Below, piece after piece: positions 42,960-47,780 of a stretch of 64,000 nt of DNA (positions are counted from its first letter, which is position 1; every line of letters begins with the position of its first letter). The translations under genes and the position numbers were made by a program. Location: positions 23,024-87,023 of the IMG/VR virus record IMGVR_UViG_3300011254_000489; one strand, given 5' to 3'. Below the pieces are notes generated by a model, which was not told the DNA's origin, did not search any database, and was given only the letters and a program-made list of their open reading frames with translations. The stretch comes from a virus.

Positions 42960-43490
42960 TATTGGAGAAAAAGTATAGCATTATCAAAATACCATTGAAC
43001 TAAATAGTACTAGCATCTTTACTACTTAGGTAAGACAAAACACCAATAGTATTTTTTTATGTAAAATATTGTTATCTTAATTATTATCATATTATTCTCT
43101 ATTCGTAAACGAAGCACTGCTCCATAATTCTCATTATTCTCATTTTTCTCTAGGGGTGTCAATTTCTCACACCCCCATATGAGAATAATGATAAAGATGA
43201 GAATTGAAAAATGCTCTTTAGATATATGATAATAATGATAATATGATAATAATATATTAAAATATACTTATTTTCTTCAAAAAGACACTTTTTGCCCATT
43301 TATTATTCTCACTTCGGATGAGAATAACATGAGAAACTCAAAATTCCACACATATATGTTATATACATAAGCACAATTGAAAACCTGTAAAACAATATCA
43401 AGCAATAACAAACACAATAAAAAGGAGAGTTATCAAGGAAGGATAGTTATGTGATTTAGGTATTATGCGTAAGACGCTTTGTAGATGAGC
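42960..43490. other. AT-rich non-coding region with iterated GAGAAT/GATAAT motifs between divergent blocks; candidate replication origin or genome-end region
   Basis: No ORF; direct and inverted ATGAGAA(T) copies at about 43129-43145, 43179-43204 and 43303-43336; TATGATAATAATGATAATATGATAATAATAT run. Confidence 0.45.
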
Positions 43491-43523
43491 ATTAAATACC
43501 CTACCGTGATTCTTGGTTGTCTT

Positions 43524-43539
43524 AACCCACCACACACGG
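43524..43539. repeat. Left arm of 16-bp inverted repeat flanking the 43562-44092 gene
   Basis: AACCCACCACACACGG is the exact reverse complement of 44125-44140. Confidence 0.85.
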
Positions 43540-43561
43540 AAAGATAAGGAAAGGTGAAAAT

Positions 43562-44092
43562 ATGCCCACAAAGAAAGAAACGAAAACAGAAACCGAAACT
43601 AGCGAAGCGGCTCAAGCCGTGGATTATTCAAAATATACCGCCCGATTGGGTGACATTCAAGGAGTCCTTGAACAGGCTCCAAACGCCAAACTTCAAATGG
43701 CGGTGGATGACATCAATAAGGTTATTGAACAACAACTTGATGAAAAGTTGTGCATTCAACTAATTGGTGCATTGAAGACCTACATTCAACTTGAAGGTGA
43801 AGCCGGAGCAATTTACGCTGACGCTATGCCTCAACGACTACGCTCAAGCGACCCACTCGCTCAAGCACATTATACACGAATTGACAACGAATTGAATACA
43901 TTGATGGACGATAACTCACCACTTCTTGAAGTGATGTTTAGTCTTAAAATCGGTATGCGAGTTAAGGAAGGAGAAGTACCCACCCTTGACGACTACCGTT
44001 CAACACTACGAAAGAAGAACCGAGCCGTGAACAAATACAACAAAACCGCTTCAACTACTGCTCAACCAACGGAGGAATCAAGCGAGGCTTGA
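43562..44092 (+). CDS. Hypothetical early protein (176 aa)
   Basis: GGTGA RBS; own promoter-like motif and downstream hairpin. Confidence 0.7.
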   Translation: MPTKKETKTETETSEAAQAVDYSKYTARLGDIQGVLEQAPNAKLQMAVDDINKVIEQQLDEKLCIQLIGALKTYIQLEGEAGAIYADAMPQRLRSSDPLAQAHYTRIDNELNTLMDDNSPLLEVMFSLKIGMRVKEGEVPTLDDYRSTLRKKNRAVNKYNKTASTTAQPTEESSEA

Positions 44093-44124
44093 AGCCCGCT
44101 TACCCCATGAACTAAACCCCTAAG

Positions 44125-44140
44125 CCGTGTGTGGTGGGTT
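44125..44140. repeat. Right arm of 16-bp inverted repeat flanking the 43562-44092 gene
   Basis: CCGTGTGTGGTGGGTT. Confidence 0.85.
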
Positions 44141-44144
44141 TAAG

Positions 44145-44182
44145 GCTCCATTATGGCCCCCCTACGGGGGGGTTAAGTGGGG
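44145..44182 (+). terminator. GC-rich hairpin after the 43562 gene
   Basis: CCATTATGGCCCCCC-TAC-GGGGGGGTTAAGTGG. Confidence 0.5.
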
Positions 44183-44201
44183 TTGTGTCTAGTCATTACC
44201 C

Positions 44202-44243
44202 CAAAGATTATCATTAAGACACAACCATATGGTATGTACTTTG
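44202..44243. repeat. ACCATATGGT palindromic element, copy 1
   Basis: CAAAG...ACCATATGGT(44224-44233)...CTTTG. Confidence 0.75.
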
Positions 44244-44280
44244 AACATACCCTACTTGAACATAACGGGGAAGGTGGGGT

Positions 44281-44589
44281 ATGATGATAGATTTCAGCCT
44301 TGAAGAATTAAATGCAGACGAAGTGAAAGTAAACTACCAAACTAATTTAAGTGGTAGAGCAATGAACATAAGGACGACTTATTTTTTTACTTCCGTGGAA
44401 GATTATTGGTCAGCATACGACCTATTAGTAAAGCACAAACTAACCGATGGCTTCCAATTCCACTTTGACCAACGAAACGATAAGAATGTAATAGTTAGCA
44501 TGACAGAAGTTTCATTAGAATGGTATAGAAAAGAACAAAAACGAAAACAAGAACAGGGGGATTCACTGAGTAGTGAAATCAATGAGTAA
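44281..44589 (+). CDS. Hypothetical protein
   Basis: GGTGG RBS; follows palindrome plus ACCCTA motif. Confidence 0.6.
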   Translation: MMIDFSLEELNADEVKVNYQTNLSGRAMNIRTTYFFTSVEDYWSAYDLLVKHKLTDGFQFHFDQRNDKNVIVSMTEVSLEWYRKEQKRKQEQGDSLSSEINE

Positions 44590-44697
44590 AGCGAACCCAT
44601 ATCTAGACATATGGGATTTCTTTACTGTTGAGTCGTCCACTACCCCCCCTACTACGAAGACGACAACAATTAAAGCAATCAAACAAGAGGAATAAAA

Positions 44698-44871
44698 ATG
44701 AAAAAAGAAACAGAAGCAAAACTATACGAACTATTAGACTATCTAACTAGAACACTAAAATACTACAGTATGAATGATGACCATTGGAAAATATCACTTA
44801 GCCTAACAAGGCACACTGCAAGAGAACTAATCCCATTAGCGGAAAAAGAGTTGGAGAGTGAAGAAGAATGA
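44698..44871 (+). CDS. Hypothetical protein (57 aa)
   Basis: GAGGA RBS, MKKETEAKLYELL...; ATGA overlap. Confidence 0.55.
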   Translation: MKKETEAKLYELLDYLTRTLKYYSMNDDHWKISLSLTRHTARELIPLAEKELESEEE

Positions 44872-45260
44872 CTAGATTTCTAACACACAAAGAATTTATG
44901 GAAATGACTGACCATTGGAGTTACATAGAACAAATAGCGTTTTTATTAGAGGATAGCGAGGTTCTAGATGCTATTTTAAAACACATAGAATGTTCATGGA
45001 ATGGTCGTTACGCATTCGTTAATCGTGAAACTAATGAAGTAGAAAAGGAAGACATTTACCATGTTACAGAGGAAGAAGTTAAGATTCAAGAAGATAAGAA
45101 CAAACTCACGGAGGCAATGCTCTTGCGTAAGCAGTTAGATAGTCTAAGAGAGTTTTGTCATAAAGAAGATTATGACATTTACGATTGGGAAGTAAAGAAG
45201 ATAGAGGTGATTAGAATAGAGACAGAGGAATGTGTCTTTGAAGAGTATTGGGAGGCTTAA
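44868..45260 (+). CDS. Hypothetical acidic protein
   Basis: ORF coupled to upstream gene. Confidence 0.6.
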   Translation: MTRFLTHKEFMEMTDHWSYIEQIAFLLEDSEVLDAILKHIECSWNGRYAFVNRETNEVEKEDIYHVTEEEVKIQEDKNKLTEAMLLRKQLDSLREFCHKEDYDIYDWEVKKIEVIRIETEECVFEEYWEA

Positions 45261-45399
45261 TCTTGGCTGAAATACAGACTCCACAGGGAACTGCGACCCT
45301 GTTATATGTTGCAGAGAGTGACGGCATTATTGAGATAGTCTTTTTAATAGATTAATTAATATCCCCTTTAGTCGGCTTTAGCCGATTATCGGGGTATCC

Positions 45400-45433
45400 C
45401 AAAGTAATACCATATGGTTGTACTGATACTTTG
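45400..45433. repeat. ACCATATGGT palindromic element, copy 2, between convergent hairpins
   Basis: CAAAG-TAAT-ACCATATGGT(45409-45418)...CTTTG. Confidence 0.8.
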
Positions 45434-45506
45434 ACAGAGGTAAAAAACCCTAAGAGGGGTCGTAAGACCCCCCTTAAGACGATTATTTTTTGTGCTTATT
45501 CGCCCC

Positions 45507-45728
45507 TTACATTTTCCCCTCTCTAATCTCTTCTAAACGATTCTGTTCATTAGTAAAGAGTATTGCTTCTTCTACATTGTCAAAATATCTACAAGCCGTA
45601 GGGTAATTCAAGGCCATAACTACCCAATTGATGCTAACTATCATGCTATGATAGTACCATTTTCTTATGCCCGTTATTTCATCTTCTATATTGGATGCTG
45701 ACCAAAGCGTTATTGTTTCTCTTTGCAT
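45507..45728 (-). CDS. Hypothetical protein
   Basis: AAGGAG RBS. Confidence 0.55.
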   Translation of the reverse strand: MQRETITLWSASNIEDEITGIRKWYYHSMIVSINWVVMALNYPTACRYFDNVEEAILFTNEQNRLEEIREGKM

Positions 45729-45995
45729 TTTAATTTCTCCTTATGATATGTTGAATGGGATACCCTCACTGACCGCAACTCTTTATTTAATTCCACCTTG
45801 TCTGTGCTAATTCGTTTACTACTAAGTGTTCTTGGGCTAACATTGTCTAGAATATTGCTTTCTCTCTTAGGTTCACTACTGTTTCCACTACTCGGCGCGA
45901 TTCTCCGTCGTTATTGGGTTCTTTTCCGAAGGTGATTAACTAGTATTCGCCTTCGTACACCCAAGCCAACTACATTTCTTTAGATAAGGTAGCCA

Positions 45996-46024
45996 CAAAG
46001 TTACTACCATATGGTTTGGCTTTG
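45996..46024. repeat. ACCATATGGT palindromic element, copy 3
   Basis: CAAAG-TTACT-ACCATATGGT-TTGG-CTTTG. Confidence 0.8.
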
Positions 46025-46061
46025 ATGAACCCCGAAGGGGGCTTTCGCCTAGTATTTTCCC

Positions 46062-46349
46062 TTATTCTACCTTGATAAGTGAACCGTCCCACAATTCACC
46101 GTTTAAGAACCATTGAAAATTCTTCTGCACGATATGAACATTAGGAAGGCCGTTCAAGCGTTCCTTTGTGGTTGTGGTTGCCCATCCTGCCGAAGTAATA
46201 AACAAACCATCAGCGTCAAGGGTTGCGATTACATGCCCATGAAGCAAAAGATAACTGCTTTTGCCTGTGACTACGACTTCACTATTTCCTCGCTTGAATT
46301 TTTCTCTATTCCTAAAAGCCCTTATTGCGTCCTCTGTTATCTTTCGCAT
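46062..46349 (-). CDS. Conserved-looking phage hypothetical protein
   Basis: LHG..IA...GW.T.TTKERLN.L...QK...W motif common in phage early proteins. Confidence 0.65.
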   Translation of the reverse strand: MRKITEDAIRAFRNREKFKRGNSEVVVTGKSSYLLLHGHVIATLDADGLFITSAGWATTTTKERLNGLPNVHIVQKNFQWFLNGELWDGSLIKVE

Positions 46350-46350
46350 T

Positions 46351-46482
46351 TCAAACACTCTCTCTGTTGCTTTTACAAATAGCACAATTCTTCAAATTAA
46401 ACATATGGCTAAATTGCGTACAGTTGGTCGTAACTATACCGTAATACTTAGCCATTATTTTTATTTCTTCAACATTCTTCAT
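46351..46482 (-). CDS. Small hypothetical protein (43 aa)
   Basis: GGAGAG RBS, C...H...C..C. Confidence 0.4.
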   Translation of the reverse strand: MKNVEEIKIMAKYYGIVTTNCTQFSHMFNLKNCAICKSNRESV

Positions 46483-46535
46483 TTTTATCTCTCCGATTAA
46501 CCTAGTAAATTAATACTGTTTAGATAGGGTATGAC

Positions 46536-46564
46536 CAAAGTGCCTACCATATGGTTGCACTTTG
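46536..46564. repeat. ACCATATGGT palindromic element, copy 4
   Basis: CAAAGTGC-CT-ACCATATGGT-T-GCACTTTG, near-perfect 29-bp palindrome. Confidence 0.85.
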
Positions 46565-46573
46565 ATGCACACC

Positions 46574-46600
46574 TTATGACTCCCATAAAGGGAGCCATAA
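46574..46600 (-). terminator. Hairpin after the 46656-47171 gene
   Basis: TTATGACTCCC-ATAAA-GGGAGCCATAA. Confidence 0.5.
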
Positions 46601-46655
46601 TGGAGCCTATTGGGGAAGTTAGACTGACTAATAATTTCTAAGAGGCCTTAGCCCC

Positions 46656-47171
46656 TCAGTTGTCCTCCTGTGCGGTTTCGTTTAATTCGTTAATGTGTGA
46701 CTCGTAGTTGGTCGTTAGACTTTCCAACTGTCCGTCCCAAACCTTGTTCTTGAAGTCATCTTCAAGTCGGCGTGTGGTAGAGTTGTAAAGGAAATCAACA
46801 AGGGTTTCCTCTGTGTAGTAAACGATGTTCTCTTTGTTCTTCTTTCGGAAAAGATACACTAGAGCGTCGGGGTAGTAGTTTAGACCTGCGCCAACAAAGG
46901 AAGTAATGCTATCCTTAATTGCAGTAAAGGCAGGACTTAGTGCGTTGTTTGCATCTCGTTGTCCCGACTTAGGCAAGTAATCCCCGTACCCATGAAGGGT
47001 TGCAGTAGTACGACAAGCCGCATACAATGATGCTCGTAGTTTGTCGTCAATTGTGGTTAAAAGACAGTCTTCAACGGCCATTACGACTCGTTGATTTGCG
47101 TCCTTACCTTCCTTCTTCAATTGAGCCGATAGTGGCTCTAGTCTGTTCGTTATTCTTTCTAAATTTGACAT
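46656..47171 (-). CDS. Hypothetical early protein (171 aa)
   Basis: GGTGA RBS; flanked by inverted repeat GGGGAAGTTAG (46612-46622) / CTAACTTCCCC (47194-47204). Confidence 0.7.
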   Translation of the reverse strand: MSNLERITNRLEPLSAQLKKEGKDANQRVVMAVEDCLLTTIDDKLRASLYAACRTTATLHGYGDYLPKSGQRDANNALSPAFTAIKDSITSFVGAGLNYYPDALVYLFRKKNKENIVYYTEETLVDFLYNSTTRRLEDDFKNKVWDGQLESLTTNYESHINELNETAQEDN

Positions 47172-47248
47172 GATATTTCACCTTCCGTCTGTGCTAACTT
47201 CCCCGTTAGACACCCAACTAATCGCATACTATTCATAGGGTTGTAGCC

Positions 47249-47273
47249 CAAAGTACTACAACCATATGCTTTG
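47249..47273. repeat. ACCATATGGT palindromic element, copy 5 (degenerate)
   Basis: CAAAG-TACTACA-ACCATATGCTTTG. Confidence 0.6.
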
Positions 47274-47464
47274 CATCCAATTTTTATTTTTATTTATTAC
47301 TGTTTTACGGTATTAAAAGTACTATTTCCGGTAATAAACGGACTATTTGCATACTATTAATACTATTTTAGTAATACTATTACCACTATTCGGGGTAGTT
47401 TCGCCACAGTACAATTTGGGTTAAGGTTATATCTTGATGGCCTCTGCGTCTATTTAGTGACGGC

Positions 47465-47671
47465 ATGAGTAACACGGCGGAAATGCTACAGTTATTCTTA
47501 GAGATTAAAACAGAATTACAAGAAGTTATTAGTAGACTTAACAATAAGAAAGATACAATAGATAGCGAAATACTAGTTAGAATAGTTAAAGATATTAATA
47601 AGTTAAAGATACTAATAACACAAATACAAGAAGAACGCAATCCAAAACAAAAACAATTAGGAGATTATTAG
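47465..47671 (+). CDS. Hypothetical coiled-coil protein
   Basis: 68-aa ORF. Confidence 0.5.
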   Translation: MSNTAEMLQLFLEIKTELQEVISRLNNKKDTIDSEILVRIVKDINKLKILITQIQEERNPKQKQLGDY

Positions 47672-47780
47672 AATAAATAGTATTAATTTTATCCTGTAAA
47701 TACATTAAATAGTAATAAAAAAGGCGGTATAGTGATAAAAAAATTCCGAGTGATTTTTGAAATATTTTTAGGTGATTAAG

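Follow-up and report, generated by a model that had tools for sequence, protein, structure and literature searches.

The hok mRNA of plasmid R1, which encodes a small membrane toxin under the control of an antisense RNA, is subject to fold-back inhibition (fbi-tac), in which the two ends of the whole mRNA pair with each other. In archaea, the processing stems of rRNAs and of tRNA introns carry bulge-helix-bulge motifs and lead to circular intermediates. Pairing of the 5' untranslated region (UTR) with the 3' UTR of one message has also been described in bacteria; in the hbs mRNA of Bacillus subtilis, ~14 nt of such pairing are reported to protect the 5' UTR from RNase (Braun, Durand and Condon 2017, as reviewed in PMC7821165), and in the icaR mRNA of Staphylococcus aureus, according to the same review, a C-rich segment of the 3' UTR pairs with a purine-rich segment of the 5' UTR (Ruiz de los Mozos 2013). 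A functional interplay of 5' and 3' UTRs has been reported for haloarchaeal translation, where it serves to regulate cellular genes by growth phase (Brenneis and Soppa 2009, PMC2636863). Here, we describe two genes, u1 and u2, of the marine virus recorded as IMGVR_UViG_3300011254_000489, each of which is enclosed by its own pair of complementary arms that probably close the mRNA with a long-range helix. The window (the whole stretch that was analysed, 64,000 nt) comprises bases 23024-87023 of this 87,023-bp IMG/VR record, which is rated complete, and all positions are those of the window. The complementarity of the arms, their position around the gene and their maintenance by compensatory change recur in many relatives.

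The gene u1 with its flanks is referred to as unit 1 and u2 with its flanks as unit 2; their parts are listed in Table 1. A preliminary description, made from the letters of this DNA, had placed a perfect 16-bp inverted repeat around u1, and an inverted-repeat search finds it at the same positions (43524-43539 and 44125-44140; 16/16, 100% complementary, 585 nt apart). The second repeat proposed there, around u2, is likewise present: its perfect 11-bp core (46612-46622 with 47194-47204) is part of a pair of 21-nt arms (46602-46622 and 47194-47214) with 81% complementarity (17/21). Both arm pairs lie outside the open reading frames (ORFs), 43562-44092 on the plus strand and 46656-47171 on the minus strand, and the units are convergent, i.e. 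they face each other as had been noted. The helix of unit 1 continues for five pairs past a 1-nt bulge (43519-43523 with 44142-44146), and that of unit 2 extends via a 2x2 internal loop into the conserved motif pair of unit 1, including the same T-T mismatch. The leader and trailer motifs that the two units were said to share are real. With up to one mismatch, the leader pattern has 26 matches in the 87-kb genome, of which three are exact (window 43513 on the plus strand, window 47217 on the minus strand and one outside the window); the trailer, with up to three mismatches, has four matches, and the two exact ones (44144 on the plus strand and 46607 on the minus strand) are those of units 1 and 2, to which the exact trailer is confined within the genome. 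A search of viral contigs with a 15-mer of the trailer gave 36 stretches, in which the motif is real only in one close relative.

Perfect inverted repeats of at least 16 bp (with a loop of 150-1500 nt) are rare by chance: 200 local shuffles of the genome gave a mean of 0.075 per genome, with any such repeat in 15 of them, and the real genome has two, the second being an AT-only repeat at 43080/43238. When the whole predicted transcripts are folded, the end helix and the terminal hairpin appear in both the minimum free energy (MFE) and the centroid structures of unit 1 (z = -9.8) and of unit 2 (z = -3.5), and for neither unit was any of 20 shuffled sequences as stable. In unit 1, the MFE and centroid folds alike pair the 5' arm with 44125-44146.

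The strongest evidence comes from the relatives. By tblastn, homologues of u1 were found in the related viral loci L057 (40%) and L125 (35%), and homologues of u2 in L057, L125, L078, L090, L108, L120 and L094 (30-61%). Every one of them has a segment of the 5' UTR that is complementary to a segment of the 3' UTR, and the sequence of these segments differs. The arms of the u2 type are different in the window, L057, L125, L078, L090 and L108, those of the u1 type in the window, L057 and L125, and the weakly u1-like genes of L094/L067/L120, L108 and L090 have different arms again. Between L057 and L125 there is a C-G to T-A exchange. Complementarity in homologous loci had been set beforehand as a test in the preliminary description, and it is present there with different sequences. 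An alignment of six sequences (unit 2 and its relatives) covering 21 helix pairs shows how it is maintained. Six of the 21 pairs are altered on both sides, 88.1% of the cells are paired (79.4% when shuffled; none of 500 shuffles reaches the observed value) and the covariation score is 0.273, compared with 0.106 for the shuffles, of which again 0/500 reach it. If the partner strand is slid by one to three columns, pairing falls to 32-51% and only 0-1 pairs changed on both sides are left. A close relative of unit 2 has GC in place of AA on the 3' side of the internal loop, by which one pair is gained. Because distant homologues have different yet complementary arms, we consider pairing to be under selection, as had been proposed, and put this part of the interpretation at very probable.

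The related viruses (L094:4257-4754 and its neighbours, L057, L125, L090 and L108) usually have one u1-like and at least one u2-like arm-flanked gene close together, and some loci have three or four paralogues of u2. An iterated search with hidden Markov models among 2155 ORFs of at least 60 aa in related loci gave 139 genes of the u2 type and eight of the u1 type, 147 family ORFs in all. Of these, 130 were tested for pairing; the other 17 have too short a flank. Since the duplex energies of whole flanks are confounded by palindromes on either side (see below), the tests used were helix length and duplex energy in narrow windows that leave out the promoter and the hairpin. A perfect helix of at least 9 bp between the cognate 5' and 3' windows was found in 87 of the 130 units, compared with 4.3% of ~3000 non-cognate pairs, and one of at least 11 bp in 58 units, compared with 0.8%. 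The median duplex energy in the narrow windows was -34.0 kcal/mol for cognate and -17.5 kcal/mol for non-cognate pairs, and 90 of 129 units fell below the 5th percentile of the non-cognate distribution (Mann-Whitney p = 2e-33). Across the family there are 66 distinct arm sequences. Grouping of the proteins at 45% identity gives 30 clusters, 22 of which contain an arm of at least 9 bp; this count uses whole clusters, whereas elsewhere a cluster is represented by the member with the longest arm, which introduces a bias. Helices of at least 10 bp that start in promoter-proximal windows have a loop of 500-650 nt in 116 of 255 cases, compared with 7 of 103 for reversed windows; thus, the arms enclose single genes for proteins of ~170 aa, rather than other genes or operons.

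The arrangement of the units bears on whether the arms are transcribed. Promoters are read here by archaeal rules because the gene content of the virus is magrovirus-like, as discussed below. The small transcription units of the region are each marked by a palindrome, CAAAG..ACCATATGGT..CTTTG with a few bases in each gap, together with a TATA-like motif; the order towards the gene is palindrome, ACC(C/T)TA, a TA-rich octamer, ~25-35 nt, a Shine-Dalgarno sequence of the GGTGA type and ATG. Anatomy and composition were counted in 62 of the 87 arm-bearing units, duplicate arm sequences and three atypically placed arms being omitted. The distance from the end of the promoter motif (ACCYTA) to the 5' arm has a mode of 27 nt (20/58), which places the arm ~22 nt after the TATA-like octamer, and it is at about that distance past a TATA box that archaeal transcription is expected to start. 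The 5' arm usually begins with C followed by G or A, a pyrimidine-purine step. The median gap between its end and the ATG is 32 nt, which leaves the Shine-Dalgarno sequence outside the helix, and that between the stop codon and the start of the 3' arm is 10.5 nt. Directly past the 3' arm, 53 of the 62 units have a hairpin of -8 kcal/mol or better; a TTT is present in 46. The 5' arms are 68% purine, with 38% G and 19% C, and so would fit a strand-specific (RNA) role; the 3' arms are C-rich and resemble anti-Shine-Dalgarno sequences. As the arms lie between a promoter-like element and a terminal hairpin, they are probably inside the mRNA, in agreement with the preliminary description, and a helix in the mRNA itself can be regarded as probable. 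A weak hint comes from two contigs of run X20, a library with the description metagenomic RNA-Seq but whose RNA origin is only guessed: they cover 43528-44027 and 46692-47185 at the identity expected of relatives, and the contig of unit 1 begins at 43528, 4 nt inside the 5' arm. Only these two genes are covered in a 4.2-kb stretch, a gap elsewhere that carries no evidential weight.

It is possible to combine these observations into a mechanism, and we lean towards one in which a long-range helix closes each mRNA, either protecting its ends or coupling termination to re-initiation. In this archaeal virus of the magrovirus type, each gene would form a monocistronic transcription unit complete in itself. 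Its transcript would open with the 5' arm, 11-21 nt that start ~22-27 nt past the TATA-like box; this arm would pair with the 3' arm ~10-30 nt past the stop codon, and the GC hairpin would follow. With the 5' end paired and the 3' end within a hairpin, no free single-stranded end would be available to exonucleases, and the message, both of its ends hidden by helix and hairpin, could be long-lived and abundant. Because the stop and start codons are only a few tens of nucleotides from the helix, a terminating ribosome would be freed beside the ribosome-binding site, and the helix might return it to the start codon region. The inner end of the helix would also come within reach of a ribosome positioned at the stop codon, and this would couple translation to the opening of the structure. 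It is from the layout of the units that we infer such a role in stability or translation.

Several findings weigh against this interpretation. Forty-three of the 130 units, and eight of the 30 protein clusters, lack a perfect helix of at least 9 bp. The wobble asymmetry that would reveal which strand is the sense RNA is not significant, either among non-Watson-Crick positions within the helices (G-U 9, A-C 7; p 0.8) or among all first non-Watson-Crick positions (G-U 35, A-C 23; p 0.15). If the transcription start site is base 1 or 2 of the perfect arm, the outer conserved pairs (GTCT/AGGC) may lie outside the RNA, and the start site is itself placed by the spacing to the TATA-like box. The 11-bp core of unit 2 is not beyond chance when taken alone, since the genome contains 57 perfect inverted repeats of at least 11 bp and shuffled genomes a mean of 36.3; the case for unit 2 therefore rests on the position of the arms, their extension and the relatives. 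Finally, in five close relatives of unit 1 (L040-L044; 72-92% protein identity) the arms are nearly invariant and do not covary: there is one A-to-G change, which is compatible with a G-U pair, and the bulge is missing in one relative. The flanks of unit 1 are more conserved than the coding sequence in these five, which could reflect a constraint at the level of DNA.

An alternative is that the helix is a processing or circularisation stem, i.e. the substrate of an endonuclease or ligase by which the mRNA is trimmed from longer transcripts or made circular. Evidence for this includes a host that is archaeal by gene content and the geometry of the helix, which sets the 5' end beside the 3' region just ahead of the terminal hairpin; furthermore, two ATP-dependent ligases are described as typical of the magrovirus group (Philosof et al. 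2017), one of which was found here. The preliminary description had looked to a bulge-helix-bulge in the folded stems, and this expectation is not borne out. The 3-4-3 form of the motif can be drawn in 118 of 130 cognate and 523 of 592 non-cognate pairs and is not enriched, the form with 3-bp flanks occurs in 68 of 130 compared with 252 of 597, and interruptions in the stems of the window are limited to a 1-nt bulge or to mismatches of 1x1 and 2x2. Added to this, no back-splice joint was seen among assembled contigs, the only data compared, and the ligases match DNA ligase families. A processing stem is therefore considered unlikely. The more specific proposal that a ligase of the host or the virus joins the ends held together by the helix and the 3' hairpin, to give covalently circular, exonuclease-proof mRNAs from which an entire family of abundant magrovirus proteins would be made by Shine-Dalgarno-driven translation, is a slim prospect.

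It could also be that the arms belong to the DNA rather than the RNA, as the halves of a recombination or replication hairpin that has been split by gene insertion or is used in cassette movement; complementarity would then be maintained by copying one arm onto the other. The setting lends itself to this. The palindrome has five copies in the genome, all at 44.2-47.3 kb, and a pattern search found it in 114 viral-contig stretches, mostly of 30-97 kb, where 986 kb contain 657 copies; it thus accompanies promoters throughout the virus family. When DNA contigs of other samples are compared with the window, homology ends precisely at the palindromes: a contig of runs X7/X12 skips 44245-45399, between two palindromes, and loose contig ends occur at 44219/44220, 45388-45422 and 46545. 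The region is therefore a patchwork of small cassettes that have the palindromes as their points of exchange and that relatives gain and lose, and the better conservation of the unit 1 arms than of its coding sequence also fits a role in DNA. The breakpoints, however, coincide with the palindromes rather than with the arms, which at 9-16 bp and 520-630 nt apart are short for templated correction. The 66 different arm sequences offer no common recombinase site, neither unit has a direct target duplication next to its arms, and PHROGs gave no integrase or transposase match among the 10 neighbouring ORFs. The purine bias of the 5' arms, moreover, tracks the orientation of the gene. Such a DNA-level origin is accordingly considered unlikely too.

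A translational lock of the hok type, in which fold-back would silence the full-length mRNA until it is opened by trimming at the 3' end or by some trigger, is very unlikely. The fold-back does adjoin the ribosome-binding region, and the anti-Shine-Dalgarno-like character of the 3' arms could be read in its favour, but the Shine-Dalgarno sequence and the ATG are both outside the helix, as the distance from arm to ATG shows. The likeness to type I toxin mRNAs drawn in the preliminary description also fails on the products, which for u1 and u2 are mostly helical proteins of 171-176 aa and in the family at large are helical proteins of 150-200 aa, rather than short hydrophobic or small membrane peptides. 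Invertible DNA, which had been offered as a further option, would have a recombinase flip the gene between the inverted repeats; the repeats do flank the gene with the promoter outside them, but the contigs of three DNA runs (X5, X7 and X12), which drop rare variants, contain no strand-changing joint, the gene is in the promoter-sense orientation in 130/130 units (a consequence of how the ORFs were searched for and of the promoter spacing), different units have no arm sequence in common and PHROGs gave no invertase among the 10 neighbouring ORFs, so that a switch of this kind is highly improbable. A transposon or miniature inverted-repeat transposable element was rejected on the 66 different arm sequences and the lack of a direct repeat abutting the arms of either unit, and an integron cassette (attC) because the arms, 520-630 nt apart, have the gene between them and no integrase is found among the 10 neighbouring ORFs.

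The proteins themselves provide little guidance to function. BLASTP detects no similarity between u1 and u2, and at the level of profiles their match is collinear but weak (E 0.0016, probability 16%); the arm-flanked genes of L094/L067/L120 and L090 are weakly u1-like. The family has 322 representative clusters worldwide, almost all of 100-230 aa. Common to the family proteins are the motifs W..IR, P.R.G..S.LP, HGK.GG and YK...WDG and an acidic C-terminal tail. Neither Pfam nor PHROGs assigns a family to u1, to u2 or to any of 32 family members. The structure predicted for u2 (mean pLDDT 85.9) is mostly helical with a short beta-hairpin. Searches with this model found no match in the PDB by Foldseek at E up to 0.001, generic helical bundles only in VIA wide (best Z 6.4), a best E of 0.13 in BFVD and no score of at least 0.9 in the Atlas search.

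Table 1. Features of units 1 and 2 and copies of the palindromic element, by window position.
Feature	Position	Strand	Basis
Promoter-associated palindrome half, degenerate, ends CTTTG, upstream of unit 1	43460..43481	+	Invariant in 5 relatives; compared with the 657-copy consensus
TATA-like box ATTAAATA of unit 1 (predicted), ending 25 nt before the perfect 5' arm	43491..43498	+	Archaeal promoter geometry and family spacing
5' arm of unit 1; perfect over 43524-43539 (16 nt), five more pairs (43519-43523) behind a 1-nt bulge	43519..43539	+	Repeat search, fold
Shine-Dalgarno-like AGGTGA, unit 1	43552..43557	+	Sequence reading
Gene u1, 176 aa, without Pfam/PHROG family	43562..44092	+	
3' arm of unit 1; perfect 44125-44140; starts 32 nt past the stop codon	44125..44146	+	Repeat search, fold
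Shared trailer (44144-44157) overlapping GC hairpin (44155-44172), then TT	44144..44172	+	Sequence, motif search, fold
Palindromic promoter-associated element, copy 1	44220..44246		
Palindromic element, copy 2	45396..45424		
Palindromic element, copy 3	45993..46022		
Palindromic element, copy 4, directly downstream of the unit 2 hairpin	46533..46564		
Shared trailer (46594-46607) and terminal hairpin (46577-46598), unit 2	46577..46607	-	Sequence, motif search, fold
3' arm of unit 2; perfect 46612-46622	46602..46622	-	Repeat search, fold, covariation
Gene u2, 171 aa, large family of ~150-200-aa proteins	46656..47171	-	
Shine-Dalgarno-like AAGGTGA, unit 2	47178..47184	-	Sequence reading
5' arm of unit 2; perfect 47194-47204, then 2x2 loop, 5 pairs, T-T mismatch, 2 pairs	47194..47214	-	Repeat search, fold, covariation
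Promoter region of unit 2: palindrome with CTTTG (47249-47253 on +), TATA-like TATGAATA (47230-47237 on +)	47230..47275	-	
Palindromic element, fifth copy, unit 2 promoter	47249-47275		

Other features of the region are of interest in their own right. On the minus strand, 260 nt without an ORF (45730-45990) precede a gene for 73 aa (45507-45728) within the transcript predicted to start from the palindrome at ~46010; this segment repeats parts of the unit 2 leader, namely TTGG.TGT, and AGCACAGAC..AAGGTG at 45808, and could be either a unit that has decayed or a non-coding RNA. Upstream of unit 1, 180 nt (43340-43520) are nearly identical in relatives where the u1 protein is only 72-92% identical. 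An 18-nt inverted repeat with 94% complementarity (15 bp perfect; 44731-44748 with 45133-45150) lies inside coding sequences of the three-gene plus-strand cassette. AT-rich nested inverted repeats are found on one side of the cassette region (43048-43268) and repeated words of the ACTATT type on the other (47283-47400); because both are at a strand switch and the minimum of the cumulative GC skew, they may mark a replication origin region. Rfam contains no family matching 43000-47700 at E up to 1.

The assignment of the virus depends on its gene content. Family searches of the genome ORFs identified a family B DNA polymerase divided between two ORFs (two DNA_pol_B pieces) that are separated by an HNH ORF, an RFC-like clamp-loader AAA ATPase, an ERCC4/HhH nuclease, one ATP-dependent DNA ligase, a Cpn60/TCP-1 chaperonin (Cpn60_TCP1) and a ThiF-like protein, along with a weak match to a TFIIB repeat; the genome also encodes tRNA-Leu and tRNA-Arg. 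As described by Philosof et al. 2017, magroviruses are characterized by tRNA-Leu and tRNA-Arg, ligases and a chaperonin, with a split polymerase in B1, and are assigned to Marine Group II (MG-II) archaea. Both tRNAs, the split polymerase, the clamp loader, the replication-block ligase and the chaperonin of group B are found here, and on this basis the record appears to be a marine virus of 87 kb whose gene content matches that of group B magroviruses. The stretch is represented in seawater and marine metagenomes. In an annotated phage collection, searches with DNA and protein gave no relative either of the region or of u2, and for the polymerase they gave only distant homologues (<25% identity) from haloarchaeal viruses and cyanophages. 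A Red Sea metatranscriptome is reported to contain 13 very abundant mRNAs on contigs labelled 'euryarchaeal' or MG-II, which recruit 93% of archaeal RNA-Seq reads and are under-represented in a library enriched for 5'-triphosphates (Hou et al. 2016, PMC5069720); these 13 mRNAs are candidates for magrovirus units of the present kind.

Full-text searching of the literature brought up no report of a closing helix of this type from an archaeal virus, and word searches of three magrovirus papers (PMC5434244, PMC11706807 and PMC10160649) gave no description of one, the word 'inverted' being used there only for terminal repeats. The pairing of mRNA ends in prokaryotes has so far been a matter of a few isolated bacterial genes. 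Here, it seems to be a conserved design rule that spans a gene family (139 copies among the 114 related viral loci; worldwide, 322 representative clusters), in which dozens of independent compensatory replacements maintain pairing, and the presumed hosts are among the most abundant archaea of the ocean. If the interpretation is correct, this would be the first mRNA-closing element in an archaeal system to be backed by covariation, and it would provide a handle on the protection or recycling of archaeal mRNA ends, about which little is known. With ~12 nt per end and a hairpin, the design is simple and portable and could easily be tried out on reporter genes.

Compared with the systems described at the outset, the units share with archaeal processing stems an archaeal setting and inverted repeats that flank a whole RNA and can form a long helix, but the 3-4-3 motif is not enriched here and the enclosed RNA is protein-coding. 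The end-to-end pairing of a whole mRNA recalls hok; the products differ, being helical family proteins of 171-176 aa. As in the haloarchaeal case of Brenneis and Soppa, both UTRs would act together in an archaeal setting, although that work concerns cellular genes and no base-pairing model was met in the part of it consulted. With icaR, the units have in common a C-rich 3' UTR segment and a purine-rich 5' UTR segment of one mRNA; the 3' UTR of icaR is reported to mask the ribosome-binding site, create an RNase III site and repress (PMC7821165), whereas here the Shine-Dalgarno sequence is outside the helix. The closest parallel, along with icaR, is hbs, in which the two UTRs of one monocistronic mRNA for a small protein pair with each other. 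According to the review, hbs is a single bacterial gene whose pairing is not conserved in close relatives (PMC7821165). The feature described here, known from sequence alone, shows more covariation; it belongs to an archaeal virus and extends over a whole multi-copy family with 66 arm sequences, the 5' arm standing at the predicted 5' terminus of the message.

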